A stretch of 64,000 bases of DNA from positions 2,194 to 66,193 of the forward strand of contig JAJYZF010000010.1 of NCBI GenBank assembly GCA_021800165.1, in the 5' to 3' direction. The notes beneath the pieces were generated by a model, which had not been told where the DNA came from, did not search any database, and was given only the letters and a program-made list of their open reading frames with translations. This document shows positions 1-55,234 of the stretch, piece by piece (position 1 is the first letter of the stretch; every line of letters starts with the position of its first letter). The stretch is from Planctomycetota bacterium. Lineage in GTDB: Bacteria > Planctomycetota > Phycisphaerae > WQYP01. The translations under genes and the position numbers were made by a program.

Positions 1-100
1 CCACAGGGTGGCGAAATATTGCCCGGCCAGCGCGAGGCGAGTATGGATGTGGTGAGGGGGGCCTACGAGGTGGCGAAGGAAATAAAGGAGTTCACAGGCC

Positions 101-1246
101 ATGGTGAATGAGCCTCTTCGGCCGCCGCCTTTGCCGGCCCGGGCCGTCTGCCTGGCGGCATTGGTCACCGCCTGCGCCGTCCCATTTTGCAAGGGCGCGA
201 GTCGCGCCACCAGCCTCCCGGAGCGACTACGGCTCGAGCGATACGCCCGCGTGGCGGGTTTGGTTGTCCTCCAAGCGAGGCCGAGCCACCCCCTGATGGT
301 CATGCGAGATGGCGTGGTGGGCCGCCTCGACCTTAAGACGATGAGGGTCCTGCACGGGGTGGGCACGGCGTACAGCAACGTCGTTTTAAGGCACCCAGGG
401 CATCGGCCACGGACGGTGAAAATTTTTTGCACGCACCCAGCGTTCTCCCCCAGCGGACGAGATTTTGTTGTGCTTGTTTCTGTGGGCCACCAACCGGTAT
501 CGCCGATGGAGCTAAAGCTCCGGACGGCGTGGCAGGTGTGGTCCGTGGCGAGGGGCCGGGCGATCGGAACGCTGAGGGGCCAACTGGTTCCACCTCGCGG
601 GCCGGGGCGCCTGGTTTACACCGACGGCGGTAAAAAACTGGCCGGGTTTGGCGGGGGCAGCCTTTATTTCCTGAATCCGCGTTTGGCGGCCAGGCCGAGG
701 CTGGCGGGGGCTTGGGGAGCCGAGTCATTCCACGTAGTGGGGCTGCGGGCGGAGCCGCGCGGACCCTACCTGTTGGCCAAGTGTGCCCGGCCTGGGCGGG
801 CCGAGGTTTGGGACTCGCGCGACCAACGCAGGGTCGTGATAATTCCGCCGCCTCCCCATGCGTCGTGGAGCCCTTACCCGCCTTGGCATGCCGTAATAAG
901 AGCCAACAGAGTGGCCATTGCCTGGGGCCACCATCTGGCGATCTACCGCGCCAGTACAGGCCTCCAGCTTGCCAGCCTGCGCCTGGGGGGCACCTGTGGC
1001 CGCCTCGCCTTGGCAGCTAGCGGAGGGCGTGCGGCGGTGCTGGTCCGCGCGAACGCCACGTGCGCAAAACTGGAGGTTTTTAATGCCTCAGCGGGTCTGA
1101 CTCGCTGCGCCGAGAGCGATCCGGTACCCGTTGGGCACGTCGCGAGCGTGCGGCTGGCGTGGTGGGGGGCGAATCGAGTCGTGGCCTGCGCCCATGGGTG
1201 GATCAGGATTTGGCGCGTCGCTGGCCGGGCGGCGCGCGACCATTGA
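101..1246 (+). CDS. Hypothetical protein; possibly a lipoprotein or the immunity partner of a toxin cassette lying upstream of the window.
   Basis: Long ORF sits directly upstream of the first conserved inter-cassette element (1283-1373). The N-terminus has a hydrophobic stretch ending in Cys (LAALVTACAVPFC). No recognisable catalytic motif. Confidence 0.3.
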   Translation: MVNEPLRPPPLPARAVCLAALVTACAVPFCKGASRATSLPERLRLERYARVAGLVVLQARPSHPLMVMRDGVVGRLDLKTMRVLHGVGTAYSNVVLRHPGHRPRTVKIFCTHPAFSPSGRDFVVLVSVGHQPVSPMELKLRTAWQVWSVARGRAIGTLRGQLVPPRGPGRLVYTDGGKKLAGFGGGSLYFLNPRLAARPRLAGAWGAESFHVVGLRAEPRGPYLLAKCARPGRAEVWDSRDQRRVVIIPPPPHASWSPYPPWHAVIRANRVAIAWGHHLAIYRASTGLQLASLRLGGTCGRLALAASGGRAAVLVRANATCAKLEVFNASAGLTRCAESDPVPVGHVASVRLAWWGANRVVACAHGWIRIWRVAGRAARDH

Positions 1247-1373: not shown

Positions 1374-1537
1374 TGATCCGACAAAGCCGCTGCCGCCGGC
1401 GACCCGCACGCGAGGCAGGAATTGGCGAGGTTGAATGCTTTGGCTCCGGCACCGGAGAAAAAGAAATAGCAGGCCGACGCGCGGCGGGTGCGGTATCATA
1501 ATAGTCCGCAGTGGTTGAAGCCGGCACCGGGAACGGC

Positions 1538-1543
1538 GATAAT
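1538..1543 (+). promoter_or_regulatory. Putative -10 box (GATAAT) 9 nt upstream of the cassette-1 ATG (1553). Leaderless or near-leaderless arrangement.
   Basis: The same geometry is conserved at cassette 3 (GATAAT 5989-5994, ATG 6004) and cassette 2 (TATAAT 3782-3787, ATG 3797). An in-frame stop (TAG/TAA/TGA) lies about 30-50 nt upstream of each ATG. Confidence 0.4.
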
Positions 1544-1552
1544 AGGTGGCGT

Positions 1553-2848
1553 ATGGTAATGGTCGTTGAAGAATTGAGGAGCCGAGGAGGACGCCCCGCG
1601 GGGCGGAATCGCGTCGCAGCACCAGGCATCCCGGCTGGCACCACCAAATACCTCTATTATTCCAGCCAATGGCAGGTGGTGGAGGAACGCTGGAACGGCA
1701 CGGCCGCGAGTAATGTGCAATACCAGTACGTGTGGAGTGCGGCCTATGTGAACGGCACGGTGCTTCGCGATACCTATCTCGCCGGGGCGGTGCAGCCCGA
1801 TCTGCGGCTCTACACCGCCACCGACGCAAATTACAATGTCACGGCCTTGGTGGGGTACGACCCCGCTACGCAGACTTGGGGCGTGGTGGAGCGGTTTGTT
1901 TATTCGCCGTATGGAACGGTGACGGTGCTATCGCCCGCCTGGACCGTGCAGGCGGATGCGTTCAACTGGCAATATCTATACCAAGGCGGCCGGCAGGACG
2001 CAGCCACCGGCTTGTACCTGTTCCAGCACCGCAACTACAGCCCATCGCTGGGCACATGGACCTCGCAGGATCCATTGCAATATATCAACGGTGCGAACAC
2101 GTATCAGTTTGTGATGGGCAATCCGGTTGGGCGAACCGACCTGTGGGGCGATTTCTGGGGCCTAATGAATTTGATGCAGTACGACGCGCCAGACCCCGCG
2201 AAATTCCTGCCAATCGCCGGGGCGAATTTCCGCATCAACGTCATGGGCAGCAGCAGGAACTCGGTGCACGCCAACATAACGCTCAATCTTCCGGCCTCGG
2301 CGCACAACGGGGCGCTCAAATGCTCCAGGATCAAATTTGTCCAGTTCATCAAGGACGGCATAATATGGAAGACCCTTGGCGAACTTTCGGGGAGCACGAA
2401 TATTGGGGCACGGCCTTGGGAGGTCGACTCCAATTTCCCATTCAACTACCTGGTGGTCGCGAGCATCGGCTCTGGACAGATGTGGCCGTTCTACCCCTAC
2501 CAAACGGTGTGGCACGGTTTGCGGCCGAGTGAAAACAGTGCCTTCATGCACGACACCCCGTCGGCCTCCGGGTGGCTCAGCACTCCGCAGCAGCGCCGCT
2601 TCGAGGCACGCGACGTGGCCATTGTTGACGGTGGCGTTGACGACGGTAGGTACGTGGGCGCAATATATTGGGGCTTTTACATGGATTGGACTGGACGCAC
2701 CTACGAGCGGGTCTGGTGGGGCATGCCACGGCACGTCGCGTCGGGCCCCACGTGGGGTAACATTCTGGCAAACCCCTGGAATAACGGCCCCGCTCCTTGG
2801 CGGTCGCCTCCAGTCGTCCGCGGGCAGGCGGTGCCGCCGCAGGAATGA
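1553..2848 (+). CDS. Standalone RHS repeat-associated core domain protein with a variable C-terminal toxin domain (cassette 1). An alternative GTG start lies at 1511.
   Basis: The Rhs_assc_core signature is readable: YQGGRQDAATGLYLFQHRNYSPSLGTWTSQDPLQYINGANTYQFVMGNPVGRTDLWGD, i.e. RxYxPxxGRW...DP..G...N.Y.Y..NP...DP.G. YD-like repeats lie upstream (YVYSPYGTVTV). A roughly 230-aa unrelated C-terminal extension follows the DPxG-type junction. The N-terminal 200 aa are conserved with cassettes 2 and 3. Confidence 0.7.
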   Translation: MVMVVEELRSRGGRPAGRNRVAAPGIPAGTTKYLYYSSQWQVVEERWNGTAASNVQYQYVWSAAYVNGTVLRDTYLAGAVQPDLRLYTATDANYNVTALVGYDPATQTWGVVERFVYSPYGTVTVLSPAWTVQADAFNWQYLYQGGRQDAATGLYLFQHRNYSPSLGTWTSQDPLQYINGANTYQFVMGNPVGRTDLWGDFWGLMNLMQYDAPDPAKFLPIAGANFRINVMGSSRNSVHANITLNLPASAHNGALKCSRIKFVQFIKDGIIWKTLGELSGSTNIGARPWEVDSNFPFNYLVVASIGSGQMWPFYPYQTVWHGLRPSENSAFMHDTPSASGWLSTPQQRRFEARDVAIVDGGVDDGRYVGAIYWGFYMDWTGRTYERVWWGMPRHVASGPTWGNILANPWNNGPAPWRSPPVVRGQAVPPQE

Positions 2849-2985
2849 AGCGACGGCGCTGAAGCGCCCCGCGGGCGGGCTCGCTGCCCACCTCCGACCT
2901 CCAGCCGCCGCGCTGGGGCCTTCCGGCGGCCACCTGCCAGGCCGGGTTCGGTATCGGTTGAGTCGGAATCGGAGAATATAGGCTG

Positions 2986-3621
2986 ATGCACTGGCTACGG
3001 AAATTCCGGGTGTTCGCGCCCGCGTGTTCGATCGCCATCTTGGTAGGAATCATGGTGGCGCTGCTCCCGCGGGTGCCATCCTCAACGCCATCGGTGACCA
3101 AGGGCACGTTGCGGATCCTGCAGTCGGCATTGGCGCAGTTAAGGCACCGGACGGGCCGGAGGCCGGCCAGCATGTGGCGGTTTTTAAGGGACTACCAGTC
3201 GATGTACGCATACCGCCGCGTGGGCAGATTTGGCTCGGCGTGGCGACAGCGCCCCAACTTGGTAACGAAGCTAACATCCTCCCTGGTCGTGGCGGGGCGT
3301 CTCCCCTCCCCGGACGGGACGAACGACCTACCCGGCGTGGTGGAAGTGCTTGATACGTACGGCTACCCAATTCAGTACATGCCGCCGAGATCAGCGGGTC
3401 CTCCGACCGTATATCCTTACCGGGGTGAACGGCTGCCGTCGTGGGTCCGTAAATCCCGGCCCACCCTTGTGTACGTGCCGAACGGTGCCACCACAGCGAT
3501 GCCGCCCCAATATTCTCATACGCCATACTTTTACAGCTTCGGCCCCGGTGGGCCGCAAGCGCCTGGAACTGTCGGAGGTGCGGCAGGCTATGTTCGCAGC
3601 CGCGAAGGCTCGAACAAGTGA
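2986..3621 (+). CDS. Putative immunity protein for cassette-1 toxin (hypothetical, N-terminal membrane anchor).
   Basis: ORF lies immediately downstream of the toxin-encoding 3' end. N-terminal hydrophobic helix (ACSIAILVGIMVALL). No recognisable homology. Assignment is by position only. Confidence 0.35.
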   Translation: MHWLRKFRVFAPACSIAILVGIMVALLPRVPSSTPSVTKGTLRILQSALAQLRHRTGRRPASMWRFLRDYQSMYAYRRVGRFGSAWRQRPNLVTKLTSSLVVAGRLPSPDGTNDLPGVVEVLDTYGYPIQYMPPRSAGPPTVYPYRGERLPSWVRKSRPTLVYVPNGATTAMPPQYSHTPYFYSFGPGGPQAPGTVGGAAGYVRSREGSNK

Positions 3622-3796
3622 AATGGTCGTAGCGTGGTTTGTGCCAAGGAAAGCCCGTGAAGGGAGAAGGCGATCTGGGCCAGCCGATGCATGCGGCGCG
3701 GACCTTCCAAGGAGGCCCCCCCAGGAGTTCCCAACGGTTGCAGCAGCGAGCTTTAATAGTTGATGGGATGCCGAGCGGGTCTATAATGGGCGTACT

Positions 3797-4744
3797 ATGG
3801 TAGCGTTGAATGAATCAATATCGGCGTCCGGGCCGCGTAGACCATCGCGGTGCTATCGCGTCACAGCGAGTTACCCCCAAGGTGGCAATGGTGTTGCGGC
3901 GGGCACCGTGCAATACACCTACTACGATTCGCAGTGGCAGGCCATCGAAACCCGCACCAACGGCACCGCCGCATCCAATGTAACATCGCAAACCGTCTGG
4001 TCCGCTGCATATATCAATGCCCCGATCCTGCAGGACACCTACAACGCCGGTGTGATCCAGCCGAACAGTCGCCTTTACTTCACGCAAGACGCCAATTGGG
4101 ATACGACCGCCGTAGTCGGTTATAACGCCACCACCGGCACCTGGCAGGTCGTTCAGCGCTATGTCTACAGTCCGTATGGCACGATAACGATATTGAATGC
4201 GGATTGGTCGGCAACGCCGACTGGGACGGCCCCCATCGTGAACAATCTCTATCAAGGCATGACGCTCGATCCCGTAACCGGCCTCTACTACGAACGCGCC
4301 CGCTGGTATTCGCCGAGTCTTGGCACATGGATTAGCCAGGATCCACTTTCCTACATCAACGGCGCGAACACGTATCAGTTTGTAATGAGCAACCCGGTGG
4401 GAGGGGTGGACCCCTCGGGCCGTGTGACGGGCAAAGACGTGCTGACGTGGATGACCGCCACCTACCACGAGGTGCCGGGCGGCGGCGAGTGGGTCGACGC
4501 CGCAGGAATAATTTCCCGAACCCTCAGGCCCTGGATTTACAAGACGGCGCAGAATCGGGCGATCCACGATATGGATCGCTGCCCTGCGAAGGGTACCAAG
4601 GACGACCCGTACTACCACGGCCTCATGAACATGGCACAGGGCCAACCTCTCACGACTACGGAGCACGATGCCCTCCAGCGGCGGCTAAATACGGCCTATC
4701 CGTTCTGGGACGTATTCTGGATGCATGTGTTCGACCTTTTTTAG
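3797..4744 (+). CDS. Standalone RHS-core protein with a short (about 100 aa) C-terminal toxin domain (cassette 2).
   Basis: Core reads YQGMTLDPVTGLYYERARWYSPSLGTWISQDPLSYINGANTYQFVMSNPVGGVDPSGR. The first 30 aa differ from cassettes 1 and 3, after which the sequence is homologous (TVQYTYYDSQWQAIETRTNGTAAS...). TATAAT lies 9 nt upstream of the ATG. Confidence 0.7.
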   Translation: MVALNESISASGPRRPSRCYRVTASYPQGGNGVAAGTVQYTYYDSQWQAIETRTNGTAASNVTSQTVWSAAYINAPILQDTYNAGVIQPNSRLYFTQDANWDTTAVVGYNATTGTWQVVQRYVYSPYGTITILNADWSATPTGTAPIVNNLYQGMTLDPVTGLYYERARWYSPSLGTWISQDPLSYINGANTYQFVMSNPVGGVDPSGRVTGKDVLTWMTATYHEVPGGGEWVDAAGIISRTLRPWIYKTAQNRAIHDMDRCPAKGTKDDPYYHGLMNMAQGQPLTTTEHDALQRRLNTAYPFWDVFWMHVFDLF

Positions 4745-4778
4745 CTGCGGGCGGTGGCGGGGCGGTTTTGTTGCGGTT

Positions 4779-5411
4779 ATGTATAGGCTGTTGAGAATGA
4801 AATTCCTCTGGGTCATGCTTTCGGCCTTTGTCGCGGTCGCGGCCGTCGTCGCCGCCCTGGTGATCGGTGGGGAGGCAGGGCGGCGTGCGGAGCGCCTCCA
4901 TCTCAATATGGAAAGGAACCCAACGGCGGGTCTTCCCGGGTCCGCGCCGTTCCACGGCAGGCTTCGGCCCGGGAGCTATTACGGTGTTTTTTCCGGCGGG
5001 CGCGTTGCCATCATCGTCGGGAAGAATGGGGCGCTCGACGTCACCGGGGACTTTTCTGGCGAGAATAAAAACCTTGGTATGCACGCATTTCTGTTCCGGT
5101 TTCGGCGGTCGGGCGAGTTCGGCGTTCCATTACTCTCGGTGACCACCCGGTGGACGCAGATGGCCGGGCCGCGTCGGAACCGTCTGTACCAGTGGGGGGA
5201 CATCGGCGTTTGCGGCAGGCCCAGCTTCGAGGCGGAGCGGAGGTCCCGGGGCGCGGTGTCGCGCAAGCGATGGTGGCTGCGAGGCCGTTGGGTGGAGGGC
5301 GCTGCGGTGCAGCCGCCTTTCTTGGTTTACAAGGGCCTCCGCTACCGCTACGTCCAGGGGTCGGGGCGTTGGCGATCCCAGCCTGGGCGATCGGGGCGGC
5401 CCGGAAAATGA
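4779..5411 (+). CDS. Putative immunity protein for cassette-2 toxin (hypothetical, N-terminal TM helix).
   Basis: Overlaps the 3' end of the toxin ORF. The N-terminus is hydrophobic (MKFLWVMLSAFVAVAAVVAALVIGG). Start chosen at the ATG at 4779 (MYRLLRMKF...). Assignment is by position only. Confidence 0.35.
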   Translation: MYRLLRMKFLWVMLSAFVAVAAVVAALVIGGEAGRRAERLHLNMERNPTAGLPGSAPFHGRLRPGSYYGVFSGGRVAIIVGKNGALDVTGDFSGENKNLGMHAFLFRFRRSGEFGVPLLSVTTRWTQMAGPRRNRLYQWGDIGVCGRPSFEAERRSRGAVSRKRWWLRGRWVEGAAVQPPFLVYKGLRYRYVQGSGRWRSQPGRSGRPGK

Positions 5412-5835
5412 GGGGTGAAACGGGGGCGAAGCCCACGGGGAGCCAGAATGTAACAGCTTAGCCCTTGCGCGTAGGCATTGAGATAAATGGCAAGTAAGGG
5501 TGCATGAATAAGCGTCGGCGGAGGGGTGATTTGCGCATGTGGATGGCCGTGATAACCCGTTGACCAACGCGTAGCGACCCAGAGAATTATGAAGGGGCTA
5601 ATACGGATAATAAGCGATGATTTGGTGGTTATCCAGCGGCCGCGTAATATGGAATTATGGCGATATTTTTAATACCTTCGGTGCCGTTTGCCCGCCAATC
5701 GGCGGGAAAATCCAGCCTTGGGCGCAGCGGGGGTGCGGATGTCGGGGCCGTATCCTGTGCTTCGCATCTCCGCGAAGGTTCAAGCCGCTTTGCGGACTTG
5801 GATATCAACGATCGGCAGTCGCGCTTCGCCGAGAT

Positions 5836-5857
5836 CAGGTGAGAGTTGAACAGGCGA
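5836..5857. repeat. 22-mer caggtgagagttgaacaggcga; a second copy lies at 8996-9017.
   Basis: Exact 22-nt identity, with further similarity in the flanks (…gcgtggtt). One copy precedes cassette 3 and the other lies at the distal end of the array. Confidence 0.55.
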
Positions 5858-6003
5858 TCAATAGAGCGCAAGGACTTATGCGTGGTTCGGTGGACTCCGT
5901 TGCGTGCGATCTGGATTTGAACGTTTGGCCTATCTCTGGTGCGGTATTATAATCGTCCGCAGCTGTTGGAGCCGGCACCGGGAACGGCGATAATGAGCGG
6001 CGT

Positions 6004-7473
6004 ATGGTAACGGTCGTTGAAGAATTCAGGAGCCGAGGAGGACGCCCCGCGGGGCGGAATCGTGTGGCCGCGCCGGGCATTCCTGCCGACACGACGAATT
6101 ACACCTATTACGATTCGCAGTGGCAGGCCATCGAAACCCGCACCAACGGCACCGCCAGTAGCGACGTAACCTCGCAAACCGTTTGGTCCGCGGCCTGTCC
6201 CGGCGCTGCGGCGCTCACTCGGCCTCCGGCCTCGACGGGATTTCGCGGGGTTGAGCCCGGTGGTGTTGTGGGCAGCGGCCCACACCCGCTCAATATCAAC
6301 GCGGCGGTACTGCAAGACAGCTATTACAACGGTGTGCTGCAGGCAAATCAACGCCTGTACTTCACGCAAGACGCCAATTGGGATACCACCGCCGTAATTG
6401 GCTATAACAGCACGACGCAGACTTGGGGTGTCGTTCAGCGATACGTGTACTCCCCCTATGGCACCATCACCATTTTGAGCCCCGATTTCACCACCGCACC
6501 AACCGGCACGGCTCCCATCGTCAACAATCTCTATCAAGGCATGGCCCTCGATCCCGCCACCGGCCTTTACTACGAACGCGCCCGCGGGTACCGCACCGGC
6601 CAAGCTGGGTTGAGGCAGGAGCCGAAATCCCGATATACCGCAGGAGCGGTTCATCGGGAGATCAGCCAAGACCCATTGCAATACATCAACGGTGCTAATA
6701 CGTATCAGTTTGTGATGGGGGATTCGGTGGAGAATGTGGATCCGACGGGGCTGGCGGAAGCGTATGCCCCAAACTGGGGGGCTGGAGCTGGTCCGTTGAT
6801 CTTTAATTACGAGATGCTAAAAATTAGGGTATGCCCGAATGACCTCTCCAAGGCAATTTCACTCGCCCGGCAGGAAATCGGTGATTTCGGTGAATTCAAC
6901 CAAGGGAACGCCTTTAATGTGGAATTTGTCATGTCCCATCTGCCGCAGGTTTACGCAAGCTTCGGCATCAACAGTTGGCTTCAGTGGGCGCTGAATGTCG
7001 CGGCGGGCAACAACTGGCGGGCACCTGTAGCCCTGATATGGCACTACGCCCCGACCTACCTTGAGGCGGTGACCCAGAATCAGCACCCCTTGGTTGGAAT
7101 TCGCCGGTGGTACGTGATGCCATATTCAAGCGGCGCGTTCCTCGTCCTCACCGAGGCGTACGAGCGTGGTCGTGGCCCGATAAACGCGGCAGCCTTGGCC
7201 AATGAGCTGCCATTGCCGCCGGGGCAAACCAGCCTAAAGGAAACCACCGAGGCTCTCTGGGACAAGGAGCCCGGCAATGTCGCCCAGAGCGTGAAACAGG
7301 ATTTCGGACCGGGAGTGAGTTGGGGCAAGTTCCTCAACCACTGGAAGCCGCTGTCCGGCCTGAGGAACCTCAATAACAACCCTTGGATTAATTCCCTGCC
7401 GCCGTCCGAGGGGCCCGGGGCGGTACCGCCGCCGCCCCCACTGTCGCCAGTTTTCCCACCGGGGCTTCCGTGA
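6004..7473 (+). CDS. Standalone RHS-core protein with an approximately 250-aa C-terminal toxin domain (cassette 3); carries two in-frame repeat-element insertions.
   Basis: N-terminus MVTVVEEFRSRGGRPAGRNRVAAPGIPADTTNYTYYDSQWQ is nearly identical to cassette 1. The core ends in QDPLQYINGANTYQFVMGDSVENVDPTGL. Relative to cassette 2 there are +96 nt (6192-6292) and +48 nt (about 6586-6668) insertions. The second destroys the RWYSPSLGTW motif but keeps the frame. Confidence 0.65.
   Translation: MVTVVEEFRSRGGRPAGRNRVAAPGIPADTTNYTYYDSQWQAIETRTNGTASSDVTSQTVWSAACPGAAALTRPPASTGFRGVEPGGVVGSGPHPLNINAAVLQDSYYNGVLQANQRLYFTQDANWDTTAVIGYNSTTQTWGVVQRYVYSPYGTITILSPDFTTAPTGTAPIVNNLYQGMALDPATGLYYERARGYRTGQAGLRQEPKSRYTAGAVHREISQDPLQYINGANTYQFVMGDSVENVDPTGLAEAYAPNWGAGAGPLIFNYEMLKIRVCPNDLSKAISLARQEIGDFGEFNQGNAFNVEFVMSHLPQVYASFGINSWLQWALNVAAGNNWRAPVALIWHYAPTYLEAVTQNQHPLVGIRRWYVMPYSSGAFLVLTEAYERGRGPINAAALANELPLPPGQTSLKETTEALWDKEPGNVAQSVKQDFGPGVSWGKFLNHWKPLSGLRNLNNNPWINSLPPSEGPGAVPPPPPLSPVFPPGLP
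6192..6292. repeat. In-frame 101-nt insertion (net +96 nt) containing a REP-like element in inverted orientation (…gacgggatttcgcgg…).
   Basis: Absent from the homologous position of cassette 2 (ggtccgcTGCATatatcaa). Shares the cgaaatcccg 10-mer with the repeat-island elements. Confidence 0.5.
6614..6659. repeat. REP-like palindromic element (ggcaggagccgaaatcccgat...catcggga) inserted in-frame in cassette 3.
   Basis: Same family as the five copies in the 9.3-10.5 kb island (gccgaaatcccgatgGcgcaggagcc…catcggga). Carries a CCCGAT/ATCGGG inverted repeat. Confidence 0.6.
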
Positions 7474-7483
7474 GGATGTTTAA

Positions 7484-8896
7484 ATGAGGAGGCTCCCCCC
7501 ATCCGAGGCGGCGCTGTGGTGGCTCGTCGTGGCCACCTCGGTTGGCCTCTTTGCCGCCACGGTCGTACCCGTCCTCCTGTATCTCGGCGCAATTGCCAAC
7601 CCGGCCGTGAGTGGGCTTTTTGCGGTGGCCGAAGGCGCTGCCACGCTGGGGGCGTCGCCCGTAGGAACTTTCCTTCTGCTGGGGACCGCTCTGGTGTGTT
7701 ACACCTCGAGCATCAGCGTCGGCTCGCCGCCCGATTTGATAAGATCGCGGCGCACGCGAGGAGGTGGTGTCCGGTTGGTGGTTCTGGCCGTGCTGCTGCG
7801 GCTGGCGGTTGCGCCCTTTATCGGATTTGGCGGTGCCTACGCTTTTTTGGTTTTCATTCCCTTGGGCGTGCTGGGCATCTGGTTAACTCTTTCGGCCGTC
7901 GTCCTCGCAGCCCGCGGGCTGGTGCGGTGGAGGCGGACATGGGACACCGTCCGTGACGGCGTGGGTTGCGGACCGGGATCGTTCGGCAAACGCCATGTGG
8001 GCTTTGGGGCCGGGTTTTGGCTCGAATCTGCAGTGGCGTGCCTCTGGCTCGTGGCCGCAGCCCACGCCGTTGCAGATCGGCTCGGGGCGGCGGTGCCGTC
8101 GCCTCGCGTCTACGGTTGGGGCGGCGACGCGGGGACGTGTGCTTGGAACAGCGCAATCACTTTTCTGCTGCCCCGCGGGGCGTCTGCCGTTCTTGCAAGC
8201 GGTGCCATATTGATGCTACGGGCTCTGCGGGTGCCGCGAACAAGCGGGGTGGGTCCTGTAGGTGCCCGCCTGCGTTTTTCCCTCATGATGGGCGTTGGGG
8301 TAGCTGCAATACTGGCGTTTTGCGACGTGTTTTACCAAGTGAACGTGAGCTACACACCAGCGTGGATGGCGTGGCGGCTGTGGCTGCTTTGGGAGTTTTA
8401 CACCATTGGAGCGGTGGCATTCCCGGTTTCGTCGGTGGTTGTGCTGCGGGATACCACGGCCGCCGCGCGGTGGATTGGCCGCGGTCTGCCGGCGCAGATG
8501 CATGCTGAGGGTAGCAGGCGGTTGGCCAGTGTACATTTCTGGTCCGCATGCACTTTGGGTATTTATGGGGGGTGGGTTGCCCACGGTGGTGCCTCCCGGC
8601 CCACGGATGAGGCTTTAAGGAAACAGGGAACTTGCTGCTGGCAGTGGGCCGTAATGTGCGTGCTCCTTGTGTTGTGTTTTTTTGGTGTGGTCGGTGGTTT
8701 CTGCGTTGCCATTTGCCTGCTCGCCGCCGCGTTAGTTCCGCCGAGTGGTATCGGCGTGGCGCTGGGCGCGTACGAGACCATCGTCGCCATCGCCTACCTT
8801 TGGATTTTTATAGGGTATTCCGTTCGGGCGTACCGACGGGTACTTGCCGGGGGTGAGCCGGCCTACCCAATGGCCAGGGGTTTCAGGCTGTTTTAG
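7484..8896 (+). CDS. Polytopic membrane protein (about 10-12 predicted TM helices); putative immunity protein of cassette 3.
   Basis: Starts 11 nt after the toxin stop. Highly hydrophobic throughout with no recognisable family. Assignment is by position only. Confidence 0.35.
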   Translation: MRRLPPSEAALWWLVVATSVGLFAATVVPVLLYLGAIANPAVSGLFAVAEGAATLGASPVGTFLLLGTALVCYTSSISVGSPPDLIRSRRTRGGGVRLVVLAVLLRLAVAPFIGFGGAYAFLVFIPLGVLGIWLTLSAVVLAARGLVRWRRTWDTVRDGVGCGPGSFGKRHVGFGAGFWLESAVACLWLVAAAHAVADRLGAAVPSPRVYGWGGDAGTCAWNSAITFLLPRGASAVLASGAILMLRALRVPRTSGVGPVGARLRFSLMMGVGVAAILAFCDVFYQVNVSYTPAWMAWRLWLLWEFYTIGAVAFPVSSVVVLRDTTAAARWIGRGLPAQMHAEGSRRLASVHFWSACTLGIYGGWVAHGGASRPTDEALRKQGTCCWQWAVMCVLLVLCFFGVVGGFCVAICLLAAALVPPSGIGVALGAYETIVAIAYLWIFIGYSVRAYRRVLAGGEPAYPMARGFRLF

Positions 8897-10793
8897 GCAC
8901 GCGCGTTGGCGAAGCGGCCGTCCAAAAAAATAGTGACAGGCTACCTATTAAAAGGAATCCCATAATCGCCAACCAGGCGACGACCTCGCCAGAAGCAGGT
9001 GAGAGTTGAACAGGCGACAGCGGCGCACCAAGAAGTTGTGCGTGATTTTAATGGCGTGGTTACCTGCATAGGTTTGGCATCCTGAGGTGGAAAGGCTAGA
9101 TTTTCTTCGCTGAGAAAATGGCTCTTTTGTGCCAGCACTTATGGTTGCGGTGAATGCAACACCTCCAGAGATCAAATTGGCCGCGAGGTATCGCCGCCGT
9201 AAAAACTTCGTTGCCTTTGACCGCTGACCGCCGACCGCTTCCCAACATCCTTTATACGCCCCTGCGTACCTTCGTGCCCATTGTGGTAAAAAACCGTCAT
9301 CGCCGTTAAGGCATGGATGCCGAAATCCCGATGGCGCAGGAGCCGCGCATCGGGACTGACCGCCGACCGCTCATCGCTTCCCAACATCCCCCGCCGTCCT
9401 CTAAATCTGTGAAATCTGTGTAAGGCGTTTATCCCGACGTCCATCGGGATGGATCCCCCCGTCCGTCCTTCGCGCTCCTCTGCGTCCCCAGCGGTGAATA
9501 ATCATCTCCCGTCTCGTCGCGGCGCAGCCGCCAGCCCTCCGTCTTCCTTGAGCTCTACTGTTCACCTGTTCACCTATCACCTTTCTCGCGCAGCGCCCCA
9601 TCCTCTGCGGTCCTCTGCGTCCCCTGCGGTGAACACTCCTGCGGCCGCAGCCGCCTTTAACTCCTAGCTCCCAGATTCTAACTCCTGCGGCCACAGCCGC
9701 CGTCTCCCGTCTCGCGGGCCGCAGCCCGCGCCATTACCCTCCCCCATACCCCGCCTATCACTCATCAAGCGGAACTCCCGATGGAAGGCTCATTCCCGAT
9801 GGCTATTGGGACGCGCCAAGCCTCGTTCCGCCTGACCGCAGGCCCCCAAACCGCCCGCGATCACTGACAAGTAAATACGTACCCCGCCGCGTGGCCCCTC
9901 GAAGCCACAGGCCAGGCACCACACCAAAATAAGGAATTCGACCCATGCCCATGCTGCGCCCACAAAACGAAAAAAAGCCCCCTCAACCCGGAAAATTAAA
10001 AATGTTTGGCCACATTGCCCATCTTGGCCATCTTACCCCCAAAACCCCAACAAAACCGCCCATTTTTCAACCTGTCCAAGACGGCCAACCCCCAAAACCT
10101 TGGCCACCTTGGCCATCTTGCCCGTCCCCGCCCTCCCGCTCTGCGTACCTCTGCGTCCGAAGTTTATCCCGATGTCTGTCGGGACGGTAAAAAATCGTCA
10201 TCGCCGTTGAGGCATGGATGCCGAAATCCCGATGGGGCAGGAGCCAAGCATCGGGAACTCCTGTCTCCTGACCCCTGACTCCTAACTCCCGTCGCGGCAT
10301 GGATGGCGAAATCTCCCGATGTCCCGTAGGCCCAACGCCGTTCGGGAGAGTCGCCAATCGGGAACTCCCGTCTCCTGACTCCTGACTTCTGACTCCTAAC
10401 TCCCGTCGCGGCATGGATGCCGAAATCTCCCGACGCATCGGGACAGGAGCCAAGCATCGGGAAGGCATGGATGCCGAAATCCCGATGTCCCGTAGGCCCA
10501 ACGCCGTTCGGGGGAGCCACCAATCGGGACCTCCCAACTCCTAAGTCCTAGCTCCCAGCTCCTAGCTCCCAACTCCTAACTCCTTACCAAAAAAACTTGT
10601 TGATCTTGTGGATCTTGAGAATCTTACCCAATGCCGCGCGGGTGAAGGGCTTTGGAGAAATGCCGGGGTGTGTCCAAAAATCTTTGCGCCGTGCGAAGAA
10701 TTTGCAGGTTTGTGGCATTGAGTCAGCCGACATGCTACCAGAATGTTCCGATGGTCCAGCCTAAGTACCGCAAGAGAGCCGACCTGATGCGCT
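8897..10793. repeat. Non-coding repeat island between convergent genes.
   Basis: Five copies of ggcatggatgccgaaatc(t)cccgatg start at 9310, 10210, 10296, 10410 and 10464. Palindromes of the form cccgatg...catcggg recur. Other repeats include cgccgaccgct, ctcctgactcctaactcc, ttggccatcttgcc, and the pair tttatcccgaCgtcCatcgggat / tttatcccgaTgtcTgtcgggac. Confidence 0.7.
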
Positions 10794-13700
10794 TCATTGC
10801 GCCGATGCGGCAACCGACCGTACGTCGGCGATTCGCAGATAATAATTACGGATGATCCGGCGATAACCGGACGGGAATTTTTGCCTGGCGAGATTCAGCA
10901 GCCGCAGTTGTTGCAGCGGTCCAAGGTGTTCCCATTGCGCTGGACTGATGCCCAAGGCCGTTATTTGCAAAGGCACCATTCCGGCGCTCGTCAGCGGTCC
11001 CGAAAGGCCCGTTCCGGCGCTGCCCGGCGCGTGGCCCAAAGCCGAATGGCTTGCGCTGCCACTTCCAGGCTTGCCATGATTTCCACCGGCCATAGCTGAT
11101 GACTGCAAGGCGTCAGCCAGCGTTGCCCAGGCCCGGGTCAGCGACTGCGCTGCGGCGATCGCGGCTCCGGCATTGCCGGAGAGCGCTTGTGGTTGGGCGG
11201 CTAGCGCTGCCTGTACGTGTCGGGCTACCGCGGTCATGGTGTTCGAAGGGGTGCGGCCTGCGCCGTCCTGGCTGGAACCCGCCGCAGGACTACCTGCCCC
11301 GGCCGGGCGTTGCCAACGAGTGCCCATCGACGTGTTATGCGCTAGCGTCCTCATTTCCCCGCTGGCCGTACGCATTTCGGCCAGGGCTTGGCCCTGATAA
11401 TTCTGAGCCTCTTGTCGATCCTGGGTGGATTGCGCCGCGGCCGCCTGAGCTTGGGCCGTGTCGGCTCTTTGCATTTGTTGCAAAGCCGTTTCCAGATGCT
11501 CGGCCACATTTGGCGCACCGTCACGAGCTTCTTGTTGTAATTTTCGCCCTTCGGCAATGGCTCTGGCAATGGCCGCGGCAGTCTGGTGCTGGCCGTTTTC
11601 CACCGCTTGGGCTGTCGGTGTGTGATGGGCCGCCGCCGTCCGCGCGGCAAGGGTGGCCTGTCGGCTGGCCAATGCTCGGGCTCGCATGGCTGCCTCGGTC
11701 GCCTGCTGCGCCAAGTGCTTCTGTGATTCAAGGTGTTGCGTCTGGTCGCGTGTAGCCTTTGCCAAATGGTTATAAGCCTTTTGCAACAAACTTGCCCCGG
11801 CACCGCCGGATTGATGCGTGACTTGTTCCACCGCCTGCTTGGCATCGGCTCTGGCCTGAAGCAGATTCGCCCGCTCCCGCCTTGGCGGGTTTTCGTCAAG
11901 CATGTGGTGCACCTGCCGCCGAATGGCATCCGCTGCTGGCACCATGCGGTGCAGCGCTTGTGCCGCGTCTGGTTGTTGCCCAGTGGCCGTTGCCGTTTGA
12001 ACCTGTCGCGAAAGTTGGTTCAAGGATGCTTGATCACGCTTCGCCTGACTGAACTTGTGTTGGGCCGCAGGCGTCTGGGTCTGCTGGGCATACCGGTCCA
12101 ATTGCCTGGCCATGGCCCGCAAGGTCTGCACGATATTGTTACGTGCTTCCCTGGCCACTGCGGCATCGCCGCGGCTTTCCAGGGCGCGGCTTACGGCTCG
12201 CATCATCGCTGGGGTAACCGGCTGCGCCGACGCTGCGGCAATCGTCGGCTTATAGCGCTGGTTGAAACGCGTTATTTGTCGGTTCAGAATCTGCTGTTGG
12301 TCGGCCAGATGCTCCAAAGCGCTCCGCTGGGCTTGCCGAAAAATAGCCGGATGCAAATCAATATTTTCCACCGCCTGTCGGCGCACAATGGTGGCTACTT
12401 GTTGGGCTAACTGGCTGATGGCTGCCGCCATGTGCTTGGCGGCCGGAATTTGCAGTGATGGATGTTGACGCAACAACTGTTGCAGTTGTTGGGCCAAAGC
12501 CTGTTGGTCGTGGTAAGCAAGGTGGCGGGACCCGCTGTGGGCGAGCCTTTGAGCGATGGAGTGCTGCCGACGTGCCAACCGGGCCAGTGAATTCTTCAAG
12601 GCCGCACGAGCCTTGGCCTGATCCAAGGTGTGCAGCAGCCGCAACAGCGACGCTTGCGCTCGCTTTAGCCCCATCCGGCCAATCCGGGCCAACTCTGGCA
12701 TGGAGATGGGACGCGGCTGATCCGCAGCCAGACCGGTGCGGGCCAGATCATTGGCGGCCACCTGCACCGGACCGTGGGCCACACGAATGGCTTGTGCTGC
12801 TACCGCGCCAAAATCGCTCGCCAAGAGGGTCTTGGCCTGTTGCGCCAGAGTCTGCCCCGTGCGCAACACCCGCGCGGCCGCATCGGCCACCGCCGCCTTG
12901 CGTGCGGGATCCACCGCCCTGTACCTGGGCCAACCGACCAGCACCCGGACCTGGGTACGGCCCACCTTTACCGCGGTTAACGTCTGCACAATGGCTTTTC
13001 GCAGCAACTTCCATAATTTGTTATCCTGCCGGGTTTGATATTGGTGCCGCAGGTGGGCATCAACGATAAGCTCATGGCGGGCGGTCATGGCAAAATGGGC
13101 TTGCGGTCGGGCATTATCCAAGGCCTCGAGTTTATAATAAATCGTGTGGGCAGCGGCTCGGCCAGCCGCTCGGATCTGCGATTGCACCGCCATGATCCAA
13201 CTGCTTTTAATGGCCTTGGCGGGCTTGGGCGGTAAGGTCATATTGACGGTTCGCGGGGAAGAACCATCGGTCCACACCAAAGCCCGGATCGCCGAAATTC
13301 CATAGCTGTCGGTAGCGCTAAATACCACCGGTACGTGATCATCAGGCCGTACCCGCACCGTTAAGGCGGGGGTGAGAATATGGATCGTCGGCGGCCAGGC
13401 CGCATCCACCGTCACCGGCCATGGATGTTTGCTGATCGTCTTGACTCCATGGCGGTTGACCAACACCACCGCATAAGTGGCGTTGTGCGTCAACACCAGC
13501 TTCGCCTGATACGCCCGCGGACCATAAGCCATCAGCGGCAGCGTTTCCGGTGGACCGATATTTGGATTTACCATCAGCCGGCTCCCCACCGCCAGCAATT
13601 CGGTGGTATGAATAATCACCTGAACATGTGAACCAAACAGTCCGTGGATGGCTCCGCTGTGGTCATGAATAATTTTTTCCGGCAGCCCGGTATATGCCGG

Positions 13701-14381
13701 AAAGCGGTACCGTTTTTCAAAGAACGTAATCGTCGGCCCTTGTTCCACCGGGCCGGAATGTCGGTGAACGGATACGGCCGGTCCGGCGGCCGCCAGCCAG
13801 GGGAACACCGATCTTTGCACTCCCAGCGTCAGCGTTTGCGGCATCAGTGGCCAAAGGATGGCCCACGTGAGCACCAACGGGGCGCAAAGACCGGCCCAGC
13901 GTATCAATTTGGCGGTGGAAACAGCTTGCTCCGGATCTACAGCGTGCACATCATCAGCCGCCTGGTTAATAACGTGATGAACCAACTGCGGCGATCCCAT
14001 AAAGGGGTCCGGTCGTTTTTGGGCAAATTCCACGGCACTTAGAAAAAGTTCTTGCGATTGCGGTATGAGAGCATCCATGGTAGATGCGGCCGCCTGCAGA
14101 TTTACCCTTCGCAGAGCTGGACCAAGCACCCGCAGACATAACCCCGCCGGCACCACCCAGACCAGCAGAGCCAACACCCAACGCAGCGCCAGGGGCATGT
14201 GCGTGAATTCTCCCAGCAGGAGCACCCCGGCCAAGGCGACCGCCAAACTTACAAAGAGCACCCGTAATACCGCCAGACTGATCCGCACACTACGCTGCCG
14301 CCGCGCCACGCTTTGTAGCGATTCATGCAAGTTATCGGGCATCCGCCCTTTCGTTGCTGGATTGAAATTGCGAGCCATCAT
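10794..14381 (-). CDS. Large membrane-anchored protein with a long Gln/Ala-rich coiled-coil region (hypothetical; possibly DUF4175-like).
   Basis: Two N-terminal TM helices lie within the first 190 aa. A globular domain of about 400 aa follows. The last 600 aa or so are dominated by A/Q/R/L heptad-like sequence. The protein ends ...FPSGYRRIIRNYYLRIADVRSVAASAQ. ATG at 14381 (MMARNF...) is preferred over the TTG at 14420. Confidence 0.5.
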   Translation of the reverse strand: MMARNFNPATKGRMPDNLHESLQSVARRQRSVRISLAVLRVLFVSLAVALAGVLLLGEFTHMPLALRWVLALLVWVVPAGLCLRVLGPALRRVNLQAAASTMDALIPQSQELFLSAVEFAQKRPDPFMGSPQLVHHVINQAADDVHAVDPEQAVSTAKLIRWAGLCAPLVLTWAILWPLMPQTLTLGVQRSVFPWLAAAGPAVSVHRHSGPVEQGPTITFFEKRYRFPAYTGLPEKIIHDHSGAIHGLFGSHVQVIIHTTELLAVGSRLMVNPNIGPPETLPLMAYGPRAYQAKLVLTHNATYAVVLVNRHGVKTISKHPWPVTVDAAWPPTIHILTPALTVRVRPDDHVPVVFSATDSYGISAIRALVWTDGSSPRTVNMTLPPKPAKAIKSSWIMAVQSQIRAAGRAAAHTIYYKLEALDNARPQAHFAMTARHELIVDAHLRHQYQTRQDNKLWKLLRKAIVQTLTAVKVGRTQVRVLVGWPRYRAVDPARKAAVADAAARVLRTGQTLAQQAKTLLASDFGAVAAQAIRVAHGPVQVAANDLARTGLAADQPRPISMPELARIGRMGLKRAQASLLRLLHTLDQAKARAALKNSLARLARRQHSIAQRLAHSGSRHLAYHDQQALAQQLQQLLRQHPSLQIPAAKHMAAAISQLAQQVATIVRRQAVENIDLHPAIFRQAQRSALEHLADQQQILNRQITRFNQRYKPTIAAASAQPVTPAMMRAVSRALESRGDAAVAREARNNIVQTLRAMARQLDRYAQQTQTPAAQHKFSQAKRDQASLNQLSRQVQTATATGQQPDAAQALHRMVPAADAIRRQVHHMLDENPPRRERANLLQARADAKQAVEQVTHQSGGAGASLLQKAYNHLAKATRDQTQHLESQKHLAQQATEAAMRARALASRQATLAARTAAAHHTPTAQAVENGQHQTAAAIARAIAEGRKLQQEARDGAPNVAEHLETALQQMQRADTAQAQAAAAQSTQDRQEAQNYQGQALAEMRTASGEMRTLAHNTSMGTRWQRPAGAGSPAAGSSQDGAGRTPSNTMTAVARHVQAALAAQPQALSGNAGAAIAAAQSLTRAWATLADALQSSAMAGGNHGKPGSGSASHSALGHAPGSAGTGLSGPLTSAGMVPLQITALGISPAQWEHLGPLQQLRLLNLARQKFPSGYRRIIRNYYLRIADVRSVAASAQ

Positions 14382-15313
14382 TGCCCATCCGCTTGAAACT
14401 CTGCCATGGCTTAAAATCAATTATACCCGATCTTCGGCCGCCACAGGCATCTTCAGCTTCAATAAAGGGAGGATACCGCTACTGGGGTGACCGGCGTTCT
14501 CCCCCGGTCAACAGCACGGCAATCCCGATTTAATAGGACCTGCGGAATATTCTCTTATTGTCGGGGTGGCAACCGGTCGAAAAAGCTACTATCCCGGCAC
14601 GGAGGCTATGTCGAGAGGCCAGGGATCGGTAGACAACTTTGCGTGGAAATGCCGGAGTAATGTTTAATGCCAGCCTCTTTGCGAATCACCCTGACCGATT
14701 CGTCGTTTGCTTTACGCATGCTACCCGGAGGTGACGCCGCAACTGCCACGGCCGCCGGCCGTTCTACAACAATTTCCGCTCCGCGCCATCGCATTCATGC
14801 TCATCCTGCGGCGAGCCGCCGGCTCAGGCACAGCGTTCGGTGCCAAGCAACACGACGATTGCCAAAACTCCTGGTTCCAGCGGGCACCACCTTTCCGATG
14901 TGAACATTCCATGGTCTAAACATGATGTCGCAGTTGGGACTGCGGGAGGTTGGGGGCGGCTTGGCTTTGGCCCGGTGGACAGATGGTCCATTTTCCACCC
15001 GCATTTTGTTGCGCGTTCGGGAGTTCGGCGGCAAGAATTGCTGAGGGTTTGGTGGCTTTTTTGGCGTGGCGGAAGCCCGGTGCTCCACGGCCCAATCCCA
15101 AAGGTCCCGTTAGTCGTTCGCAGACCGGGCCAAATGGTGGCGTAGCAGGAGGCGGACAATCCTTTCACCATGCCACCCGTACCCTCGCCGACCGCAAGGA
15201 ATTATCATTGCCGGTTTTGCCGCCCGGCAGACACCTCCCTTGCGTTCCACCGCCGGTCACCATGAAACTGCATCTATCCACAGAAATCGGTGAGCTGGTG
15301 TCATTTGACCTGC

Positions 15314-53502: not shown

Positions 53503-53728
53503 CTTCCGGGCGTACCCCACCATGGCTGCGGCTGCGAGACGCGAACACGCCAACGCCGTGTGGGAGACGAGCTTGGGGGAGGCCGCACGGGGGAGAAAAT
53601 CTTGACGTGTTGCAAAAAGAGCAGCGGATTGTGCCGCAGGAGCCTCAAGACATACGATCATCCGTGGGTGTGACGAGATCGGCACTCCGGTCCTCCCTTT
53701 GAGAACCGGTTTCGGCTATAGTTGAAGC

Positions 53729-55234
53729 ATGAGCGTTGCAGGCACTGCTATTTCTTCGCCTCTCCTGGAACAAACCTTTCGGCGCACCTGGCCAGAGGTG
53801 GTAGTTCCCCAAGCTCCTCTGGTGACGCACAGTTCTCCCGGACGCATTGACTTGCTGGGCGGCCTGGCGGCGGAGGTGGGGGGGATGGTCGCCCAGATGG
53901 CGTTATCACGGCGGGCGTCGGTGGCGGTGCAATGGCGCACCGATGGCCGACTGGCCATCTATTCGGCCCGCCTTACCCCCGCCAGCGGACCCAGTCCAAT
54001 TATTCTCAATGCCGACCAATTTGCCGCGGCACCGGGTACGCCGGTGCGCTCGCCGCGGGAACTATTGGATTTATTGCCCCGTCCCGCACCCCATCCGGAC
54101 GCACCTGGATCCCAGCCTTGGGCAGCACCGCTGGTGGCGTTGTTCGAGTTGGTTTTAAGCCATCCTCAACTCGCCACCGCCAGTCCGCTGCGTGACCGCC
54201 GCACCGGGCGATTCTCGGGGGCCACGGTCTTCATTCACTCGGATATTCCCATGCATGCCGGACAGGCCAGTTCCACGGCGGTGATCACGGCTTTAACGCA
54301 GGCCATTTGTCGTTGTTTGCCGGTGGCCATCAGCACCGTCGAAAAGGCCGTCCTCATTCAACAGGCGCAGAACATGTTTGGCGGCACGGGCAGCCATGTG
54401 GTGGACGCTTTAACGACATTGTGTGCGCTGGAGGGTCCGCCAGCGCACATCCTGCGTTACAATGCGCAGCCACACGACTTGGTCGGCCAGATTCCCCTGC
54501 CGCCGGATCTGAAGATTTTAGCCCTTAACACGGGGGTACCCGCCATGAAAGGCGGGCAGACGGTGCGTTCACTTCGGCTCGCGGGGGCGATGGGCCTGCA
54601 GATTATTCAGGTGATTTACAGCGATCTGGGGAGGCAAGAAGCGCCCTTGCACGGATATCTGGGTAATTTATCGCCGAGTTTATACCGCCGTTATTTTCGC
54701 GCCTTGCTGCCGCGGCGTCTGCGGGGGCGCGATTTTGTGCGATCGTACGGCCCCCTGCCGCCAAGTGCCGGTGAAATTCACCCCGACCAGTTCTACCGGG
54801 TGCGCACGGCCATCGACCACCTGATTTCGGAACACGAACATGCGGAGCACTTTTTGCATGAAATGGAACAGCCGGTGGAACCCGCCGTCGGTCCTCGGCG
54901 GTCACAAACGTATCGCGATTTAACCTTGCGCCGGGCCGGGCGGCTGCTGCTGGCTTCGCATCATAGTTATCGTCTGCGGCTGGGACTTTCCTGCTGGCAG
55001 GCGGATTGGCTTATTGATCGCCTGATGAGCTTTGGGCCGGAGCACGGCATCTTCGGCGCACGCATCGGCGAATGTGGCGGCGGCGGCACGGTAACCGTGC
55101 TGACCGATTGCTCCCCTGCCGCCACCGAAGCCATACTCGCAATCATACCTGCCTACCGCACCACAGTCGGCGGCACGCTGCATGTGGATGTGGCGGGCGG
55201 ACCGGGCAGCGCCGGAGCACTGCTGGTTCGATGA
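53729..55234 (+). CDS. GHMP-kinase family protein (galactokinase-like sugar kinase).
   Basis: N-terminal SPGRIDLLGGLAAEVGG resembles the galactokinase signature. The GHMP ATP motif PxGSGLGSSAA appears as PMHAGQASSTAV. Confidence 0.5.
   Translation: MSVAGTAISSPLLEQTFRRTWPEVVVPQAPLVTHSSPGRIDLLGGLAAEVGGMVAQMALSRRASVAVQWRTDGRLAIYSARLTPASGPSPIILNADQFAAAPGTPVRSPRELLDLLPRPAPHPDAPGSQPWAAPLVALFELVLSHPQLATASPLRDRRTGRFSGATVFIHSDIPMHAGQASSTAVITALTQAICRCLPVAISTVEKAVLIQQAQNMFGGTGSHVVDALTTLCALEGPPAHILRYNAQPHDLVGQIPLPPDLKILALNTGVPAMKGGQTVRSLRLAGAMGLQIIQVIYSDLGRQEAPLHGYLGNLSPSLYRRYFRALLPRRLRGRDFVRSYGPLPPSAGEIHPDQFYRVRTAIDHLISEHEHAEHFLHEMEQPVEPAVGPRRSQTYRDLTLRRAGRLLLASHHSYRLRLGLSCWQADWLIDRLMSFGPEHGIFGARIGECGGGGTVTVLTDCSPAATEAILAIIPAYRTTVGGTLHVDVAGGPGSAGALLVR

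Follow-up and report, generated by a model that had tools for sequence, protein, structure and literature searches.

The window analysed here is a 64,000-nt stretch of DNA from a Planctomycetota bacterium (contig JAJYZF010000010.1, positions 2,194 to 66,193 of the forward strand; all coordinates below are those of the window). Its left end carries three cassettes, cas1, cas2 and cas3, in each of which an open reading frame (ORF) with a fragment of an RHS core is followed by a putative immunity gene. The region is almost certainly a classical main-plus-orphan rhs array on a Planctomycetota chromosome, consisting of a main gene, an immunity gene and three orphan modules. In addition, the comparison with related loci leads us to think, with some reserve, that the orphan cassettes are probably expressed on their own.

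The 3′ end of the main rhs gene, which encodes its C-terminal toxin tail, lies at positions 1-111 (+), and the gene runs on upstream of the window. A JGI contig (L001) with 100% identity to the window over a 5016-nt overlap adds 2193 nt upstream and encodes at least 767 amino acids of a YD-repeat protein that has a Pfam RHS_repeat match (E = 4e-20) and whose stop codon is at 109-111 of the window. Because the main gene sits directly upstream on this identical contig, the cassettes are not the standalone units that the original prediction, made from the window sequence without database searches, had taken them for. The last 205 core residues of the main protein are 71%, 47% and 40% identical at the amino acid level to the cores of cas1, cas2 and cas3, respectively. 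The start of imm0 (101-1246, +; 381 amino acids), the putative immunity gene of the main toxin, overlaps the main gene stop by 11 nt; it is preceded by AAGGAG, and its product has an N-terminal hydrophobic, lipobox-like segment.

The combination of a main gene with orphans is known from enterobacterial rhs/cdi loci and from polymorphic toxin loci (PMC3150448, PMC3967940, PMC3482391), and we found here the same layout as in the orphan rhs-CT/rhsI modules (Poole et al. 2011, Koskiniemi et al. 2014) and the toxin-cassette arrays (Zhang et al. 2012). As in orphan rhs-CT/rhsI, a same-strand 3′ core piece extends to the DPxG region, a unique tip comes next and a small ORF serves as its partner; longer RHS genes of other genomes carry the same pair of tip and immunity gene, and the cores have a mosaic, recombinant structure. 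Unlike the enterobacterial orphan rhs loci, this one belongs to a planctomycete, in whose lineage the full-length main RHS proteins have 2.5-4.2 thousand amino acids with DUF1349, fn3 and RHS repeats; one of them, scanned against Pfam, was without a PAAR or VgrG domain. The relatives all came from Planctomycetota metagenome-assembled genomes (MAGs), mostly labelled Planctomycetota, Phycisphaerae or Phycisphaerales, and a few Gemmataceae, Gemmatales or Planctomycetaceae. In three of the related loci a conserved protein of 520-640 amino acids with many HTH_23/28/29 domains is encoded ahead of the main rhs gene (L103 3779-5701, L104 2233-3792, L105 1472-3058), and in L103 a phage-type integrase is present as well, ~4 kb upstream.

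All three cassette ORFs are on the + strand. cas1 (1553-2848, 431 amino acids) is composed of a start block or leader (1553-1612), an RHS core fragment (1613-2149) and the tip CT1 (2150-2848). In cas2 (3797-4744, 315 amino acids) the leader extends from 3797 to ~3850 and the core fragment to ~4420, followed by the helical tip CT2 (4421-4744), and in cas3 (6004-7473, 489 amino acids) the start block is followed by a core with two in-frame insertions and by CT3 from ~6757. An RHS core had been predicted in all three ORFs, and the search with the Rhs_assc_core model TIGR03696 confirmed it: the scores of 63.9 (cas1), 69.0 (cas2) and 39.9 bits (cas3) were all above the curated cutoff of 32.5 bits, the match on cas3 consisting of two separate stretches. 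The N-terminal sequence common to the three ORFs comprises ~200 amino acids; each contains only this shell, with no Pfam RHS_repeat match. The junction before the tip reads VDPTGL in cas3, where the segment just before it is broken up by an insertion, VDPSGR in cas2, and TDLWGD, without the proline, in cas1. The tips of ~232 (CT1), 107 (CT2) and 239 amino acids (CT3) are mutually unrelated, and in-frame stops are located 16, 11 and 17 codons upstream of the cas1, cas2 and cas3 ATGs, both as originally predicted. The AlphaFold2 model of cas2 consists of beta-hairpin shell strands and a disordered leader; the best fold matches of residues 35-150 of this predicted structure were weak ones to Rhs and TcC shells, and a fold search with the helical tip gave no match.

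Each tip is followed by a partner gene on the same strand. The putative cognate immunity gene imm1 (2986-3621, 211 amino acids) is separated from cas1 by 138 nt, has GGAG upstream and encodes an N-terminal membrane anchor. imm2 (4725-5411) encodes 228 amino acids with one membrane helix when read from the ATG at 4725, in which case it overlaps cas2; an alternative start is at 4797. imm3 (7484-8896, 470 amino acids) begins 10 nt past the cas3 stop, with GAGG upstream, and encodes a putative multi-pass membrane immunity protein. The small downstream ORFs of the original prediction are therefore present as partners of all three cassettes, the third of them not being small. According to hydrophobicity, imm0, imm1 and imm2 have one N-terminal segment each and imm3 is polytopic, and these membrane features of the immunity proteins hint at toxin targets in the cell envelope.

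The pairs recur in other genomes. Homologues of CT1 and imm1 are found side by side in L040 (66% and 64% identity), those of CT2 and imm2 adjoin in L061 and L028, and the main tip and imm0 are paired in L018 and L042 (73-75% identity) directly after an RHS core fragment, in L042 behind a short orphan core fragment; imm3 has a partial homologue in L060. The ratio of non-synonymous to synonymous substitution rates (dN/dS) was ~0.17 for CT1, compared with its homologue in L040, and ~0.16 for imm1. These comparisons show that the predicted toxin and immunity ORFs are real genes, inherited pairwise and under purifying selection. In an exhaustive search of 1.84 billion representative proteins, the CT1 family comprised six clusters, all of short proteins and none of them a full-length RHS protein bearing a CT1 tip, and three of the six (P0254, P0256, P0257) start with an MVA.NE block. 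A separate protein homologue search seemingly returns only proteins about as long as the query, so that an all-short list from it is no evidence of a short family.

Whereas classical orphans usually have no translation initiation signals, these cassettes open with a conserved in-frame ATG block preceded by promoter-like hexamers. The block of nine codons, ATGGTnGCn...GAAACAAT.TCGG, encodes MVA..ETIS and opens ~30 orphan cassettes from several related MAGs; the predicted N-termini of the cassette products are (M)VALNESISASGPR or (M)VTVVEEFR. A DNA profile made from the cassette starts was run over the related loci and gave 32 instances, all on the RHS strand and all with the ATG kept (32/32), and about a dozen more were found among longer orphans. 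The instances form at least ten classes with unrelated upstream sequence. When 17 representatives from at least ten classes were aligned at the ATG, the information content per column was 0.22-0.35 bit upstream, 1.22 bit from +1 to +24 (ATGGTnGCn..nTGAAACAAT.TCGG) and 0.54 bit thereafter. This step at the ATG indicates that homology between the classes begins at the start codon itself. The GC content of the first 30 nt of the block is 33-53% and that of the following 300 nt 52-66%, and the synonymous choices in GAA ACA are nearly invariant across the start blocks. A metagenome scan with the strict block pattern returned 25 matches, all of them by chance and in unrelated genes. A structured RNA or a known RNA family at the start region was considered and rejected, as Rfam gave nothing relevant and RNAalifold found 0 pairs and no consensus RNA structure.

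Use of the ATG, or selection for an open frame that starts from it, is best supported by the reading frame at the junctions. The block is joined to cores that retain from 36 to ~560 residues. In a frame-blind count of the instances that have RHS homology within 600 nt, this homology was in the frame of the ATG in 27 of 27, with 14 distinct junction types, for which random frames would give p ~ (1/3)^14 ~ 2e-7. In the other five instances no RHS segment is near, apparently as a result of secondary decay. The original prediction had proposed independent expression of the cassettes; the conserved in-frame 5′ module argues for independent translation, an argument by comparison that falls short of proof.

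The origin of the block was considered as well. A few orphan leaders (MVTANKKTQGR in L019, MVMQANKK in P0005) resemble the start of main genes, seven full-length main RHS homologues that we retrieved (P0134-P0140) having the N-terminus MVQAKxK and sharing MVQAKxKxRG...RKF...PWLAQ, hinting that the orphan start block may have descended from the main gene start. That the leader is a copy of the 5′ end of the main gene, the orphans being internally deleted rhs genes, is an unproven lead: compared with the orphan leaders, DNA from the 5′ end of the L024 main gene scored no better than shuffles, and the region upstream of main genes is a different one, with AAAGG in it. A derivation of the leader from a decayed YD repeat, with TATAAT/GATAAT as leftover Y/D-N codons of YDxxNRL, was not supported, the similarity being weak in both DNA and protein, the conservation between classes lost upstream of the ATG and the junctions many.

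Upstream of the three ATGs, the original prediction had placed a TATAAT or GATAAT 9 nt before ATGGTA. Indeed, GATAAT at 1538-1543, TATAAT at 3782-3787 and GATAAT at 5989-5994 are each followed by 9 nt and ATGGTA, and the pattern KATAATN9ATGGTA matches three times in the 64 kb and in none of 100 shuffled versions; being paralogous, the three sites do not count as independent events. KATAAT 9 nt before an ATG is also found in 10 homologues of the cassettes. The candidate promoters are TTGAAG-17-GATAAT for cas1 (1515-1543, +), with a distal CATAAT at 1497-1502, and TTGATG-16-TATAAT for cas2 (3760-3787, +), the best match of the promoter scan (10/12). cas3 has two (5925-5994, +), TTGGCC-17-TATAAT at 5925-5953 and TTGGAG-17-GATAAT at 5966-5994, the second of which is 9 nt before the ATG. 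In eight cas2-type upstream sequences from three genomes we found the order ATTTTRG tract, TTGATG, spacer, TATAAT, 9 nt and ATG; in the six members analysed the spacer was 16 nt long, and conservation was 0.94 and 0.97 in the two hexamers, 0.67 in the 5′ half of the spacer and 0.70 in the DNA further upstream. The cas1/cas3 type has a distal CATAAT or TATAAT ~50 nt upstream of the ATG, and the upstream DNA shared by cas1 and cas3, described at first as about 60 nt of identical sequence, amounts to ~66 nt with ~88% identity. In the other cassette classes the best -10-like hexamer is 32-44 nt upstream (for example TAGAAT at about -43 or TATAAT at -32). Altogether, a match to TATAAT in at least five of the six positions was present within 60 nt upstream in 23 of 31 instances, compared with 13-21% of background windows.

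In leaderless bacterial genes, the -10 element precedes the start codon by a few bases, and a Shine-Dalgarno sequence is missing. cas1-3 and their homologues are alike in having TATAAT/GATAAT 9 nt before the ATG and AT-rich, unstructured first codons, and no Shine-Dalgarno sequence was found at orphan ATGs of the cas2 type, the neighbouring immunity genes having the AAGGAG, GGAG and GAGG motifs mentioned above. With the -10-like hexamer 9 nt from the ATG and no Shine-Dalgarno sequence, the leaderless or near-leaderless transcript of the original prediction is plausible for cas1-3. Unlike leaderless genes, however, the other classes have their hexamer 32-44 nt upstream, cas1 and cas3 have distal hexamers, and cas1 has AGGTGG 3 nt before its ATG, so that leaderless initiation at cas1-3 would be only one option. 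A literature search found no paper on planctomycete promoters or leaderless mRNAs. Elsewhere in the same genome, the ATG at 53729 (window 53714-53731) has TATAGT 6 nt upstream and no Shine-Dalgarno sequence and is another possible leaderless start.

In the explanation that we favour, each module would consist of a 3′ RHS core fragment with the self-cleavage region in it, a toxin tip that differs from module to module and the cognate immunity gene. A sigma-70-type promoter of its own would drive transcription, and translation would begin at the conserved ATG, in the cas1-3 types with a very short or absent 5′ untranslated region and without a Shine-Dalgarno sequence. Along with the immunity protein, the cell would make a truncated RHS-tip protein that is not exported. 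The most likely benefit would be constitutive expression of spare immunity genes together with maintenance of an intact module, either through coupling or anti-polarity effects or through a toxin-antitoxin-like dependence, and thanks to the core fragment the tip could still be recombined onto a full-length rhs gene.

A narrower version, which we consider possible but somewhat less likely than not to be the whole story, is that promoter and translated ORF only drive the downstream immunity genes by anti-polarity or translational coupling, the toxin product itself having no role. The 11-nt overlap of the main gene and imm0, the 10 nt between cas3 and imm3 and the overlap of cas2 and imm2 if the ATG at 4725 is used are consistent with it, selection against polarity would be expected to result in exactly the in-frame requirement found, and orphan immunity genes are thought to be the expressed part of orphan modules (PMC3150448). 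However, the immunity genes have Shine-Dalgarno-like motifs of their own, imm1 is 138 nt away from cas1, a promoter directly before the immunity gene would be simpler, and purifying selection acts on CT1. Rather than excluding the explanation that we favour, this version is a special case of it.

More doubtful, in our opinion, is that the cassettes are classical silent orphans, an unexpressed reservoir for recombination in which ATG block and hexamers are relics of ancestry spread by duplication or transfer. The main gene upstream is in line with this, and enterobacterial orphans usually have no initiation signals and act via recombination (PMC3967940, PMC3150448). Tip swapping, as read from the compared loci, is evident from the mosaic cores, from a match between the core of cas1 and that of a main gene, and from the occurrence of one toxin/immunity pair in main and orphan positions of different genomes. 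The match is that of the cas1 core (1613-2131) with a long RHS gene of the MAG DBS1-1.bin122 (L005), whose 3′ core has 93.6% identity to it at the DNA level; the match begins exactly at the cas1 leader/core junction, and the rest of the L005 gene is 72% identical to the main gene of the window. For these reasons, presenting the cassettes as expressed toxins rather than recombination substrates, as had been done originally, was a false choice. Among cassettes that share a leader, the synonymous divergence of the cores is saturated (dS from 0.7 to above 2) and the leader differs far less, indicating that the cores have separate histories. About a third of the leader-bearing cassettes (8 of ~27) are broken and the cas3 core carries repeat insertions, both in line with a silent reservoir.

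On the other side, the in-frame junctions of 14 types, the start of inter-class homology exactly at the ATG and the enrichment of -10-like hexamers in unrelated upstream sequences argue against silent orphans. Furthermore, DNA identity between cas1 and the adjacent main gene amounts to only 72%, and the longest stretch shared with that gene without a mismatch is 39 nt in cas1, 13 nt in cas2 and 11 nt in cas3, whereas in Salmonella LT2 the identity is 95% over 522 bp; to judge from these values, the adjacent main gene is a poor recombination partner, its identity to the cassettes being at most 72%. The orphan cdiA-CT/cdiI modules likewise form arrays of displaced tips with immunity genes and have a short conserved upstream piece (the VENN motif), but they are built on a different toxin scaffold and most of them are without initiation codons (PMC3150448).

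The closest precedent for expressed orphans is provided by Salmonella Typhimurium, where rhs tips of main and orphan genes have internal promoters and behave like type II toxin-antitoxin systems (Starsta et al. 2020, PMC7043789). There is thus a precedent for rhs orphans being expressed independently. If our proposal holds, the planctomycete modules would be like the Salmonella ones in having their own promoter and in being translated, with the immunity gene, apart from the delivery part. The Salmonella promoter P2 is embedded in coding sequence of the conserved core, directly ahead of PxxxxDPxGL, and is used with a weak CTG start, whereas here the promoter-like signals lie ~600 nt before the motif in a dedicated leader that is not RHS sequence, translation would begin at a canonical ATG, and the leader is followed by a core fragment of ~200 amino acids (range 36-560).

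Given these experimental findings on rhs of S. Typhimurium, main and orphan alike (PMC7043789), the modules could be toxin-antitoxin-like addiction systems, in which a truncated Rhs-CT is toxic inside the cell, the immunity protein neutralises it, the module is stabilised and growth is modulated. The conserved start module and the co-inheritance of toxin and immunity gene are compatible with such a role, which we nevertheless consider improbable: the anchored or integral membrane immunity proteins suggest non-cytoplasmic targets, and the candidate promoter lies outside the RHS-homologous DNA, before the 200-amino-acid core, and not just before DPxG as in Salmonella P2. It is just as improbable, we think, that MVA..ETIS block and promoter form a dedicated portable expression module by which displaced tips become independently made mini-RHS proteins, possibly with a function of their own. 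Such proteins could be truncated toxins loaded or exported via the N-terminal tag, or their translation could be coordinated through the invariant block, and in both cases their role would reach past storage or the expression of immunity.

Least of all do we expect the 24-30 nt block to be a DNA-level site that delimits the cassettes (for example a site of recombination or attachment, or a mobile-element end) instead of a translation start: it does stand exactly at the 5′ boundary of the cassettes joined to many core positions, the near-invariant synonymous choices in GAA ACA indicate constraint at the nucleotide level and small mobile repeats are abundant in the locus, but such a site would require neither 27 of 27 in-frame junctions nor an ATG as its first bases, the block occurs in one orientation only and has no clear dyad symmetry, neither main genes nor the end of the array contain a copy, and a Pfam scan of the ten large ORFs of the window found only housekeeping families and no recombinase or transposase.

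Several observations weigh against expression of the orphan cassettes on their own. CT1-CT3 gave no match in Pfam, NCBIfam or PDB sequences and have no recognisable toxin fold, and the AlphaFold model of CT1 has a predicted local distance difference test score (pLDDT) of 32. Of 27 cassettes ~18 are open through the tip, about a third of those with a leader are broken, and one of the repeat insertions in the cas3 core is within the self-cleavage region. The upstream classes are drawn from a limited number of MAGs, and the promoter is a match to a consensus, promoters of the host phylum itself not being documented in the literature found. The dN/dS of the cores is 0.1-0.24, also in the L039a/b pair (dS 0.26, dN 0.05), which has a common leader and junction and therefore presumably diverged as orphans; such low values are compatible with selection on translated sequence, although main genes could have produced the same picture by gene conversion. 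Finally, if the toxins act in the cell envelope, a truncated toxin in the cytoplasm would be harmless, which weakens the toxin-antitoxin variant of the explanation.

The array contains several kinds of repeats. The predicted inter-cassette element exists, with limits that differ from those given originally: its two copies of 79 nt (1299-1377 and 5452-5530, +) are 77% identical, are located ~40-50 nt downstream of two immunity ORFs and are absent from all other loci compared, occurring in this window only. A direct repeat of ~75 nt (5826-5900 and 8986-9060, +) flanks cas3 and imm3, the second copy being at the end of the array. It resembles the 5′ DNA of the orphans that start with GTG and VERTGLRGKG (L103 17096, L014 9085; also in L104), and its copies are probably remnants of lost cassettes, that is, of orphan 5′ ends. 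The insertions in the cas3 core are at 6196-6291 (96 nt) and 6592-6660 (69 nt, palindromic). The former is a 32-codon element, PGAAA..RP..TGFRG.E...PLN, that is found in frame and always stop-free in RHS cores, among them L046 (1783-1876), L005 (3698-3788), L040 (2090-2146) and L008 (8114-8424, ~four tandem copies). The latter splits the Rhs_assc_core match and belongs to a family that fills the window from 9.2 to 10.6 kb. There, at 9200-10600, short palindromic repeats are dense (unit GCCGAAATCCCGATG...CATCGGGA and several other families), and the same palindromic family is inserted in the RHS cores of L010 and L041. The repeat field is adjoined by an ORF at 10794-14420 (-), whose Ala/Gln-rich product of 1208 amino acids has a membrane segment at its N-terminus and matched nothing in Pfam. 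The remaining window contains chromosomal housekeeping genes, among them those for NADH dehydrogenase subunits, enolase and a penicillin-binding protein.

Orphan cassettes are usually seen as silent spare parts that become active only after recombination onto a full-length gene. A whole lineage here keeps a conserved start module on its orphans, with the frame preserved at every junction. Should the proposed expression not be true, the locus is an ordinary rhs orphan array. If it is true, orphan arrays would be active gene sets, serving as immunity repertoires and possibly as internal toxin/immunity pairs, and the start block would provide a simple sequence signature for finding such cassettes. 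It would also extend the observation made in Salmonella to a distant phylum in which the RHS protein scanned had no domain of type VI secretion.

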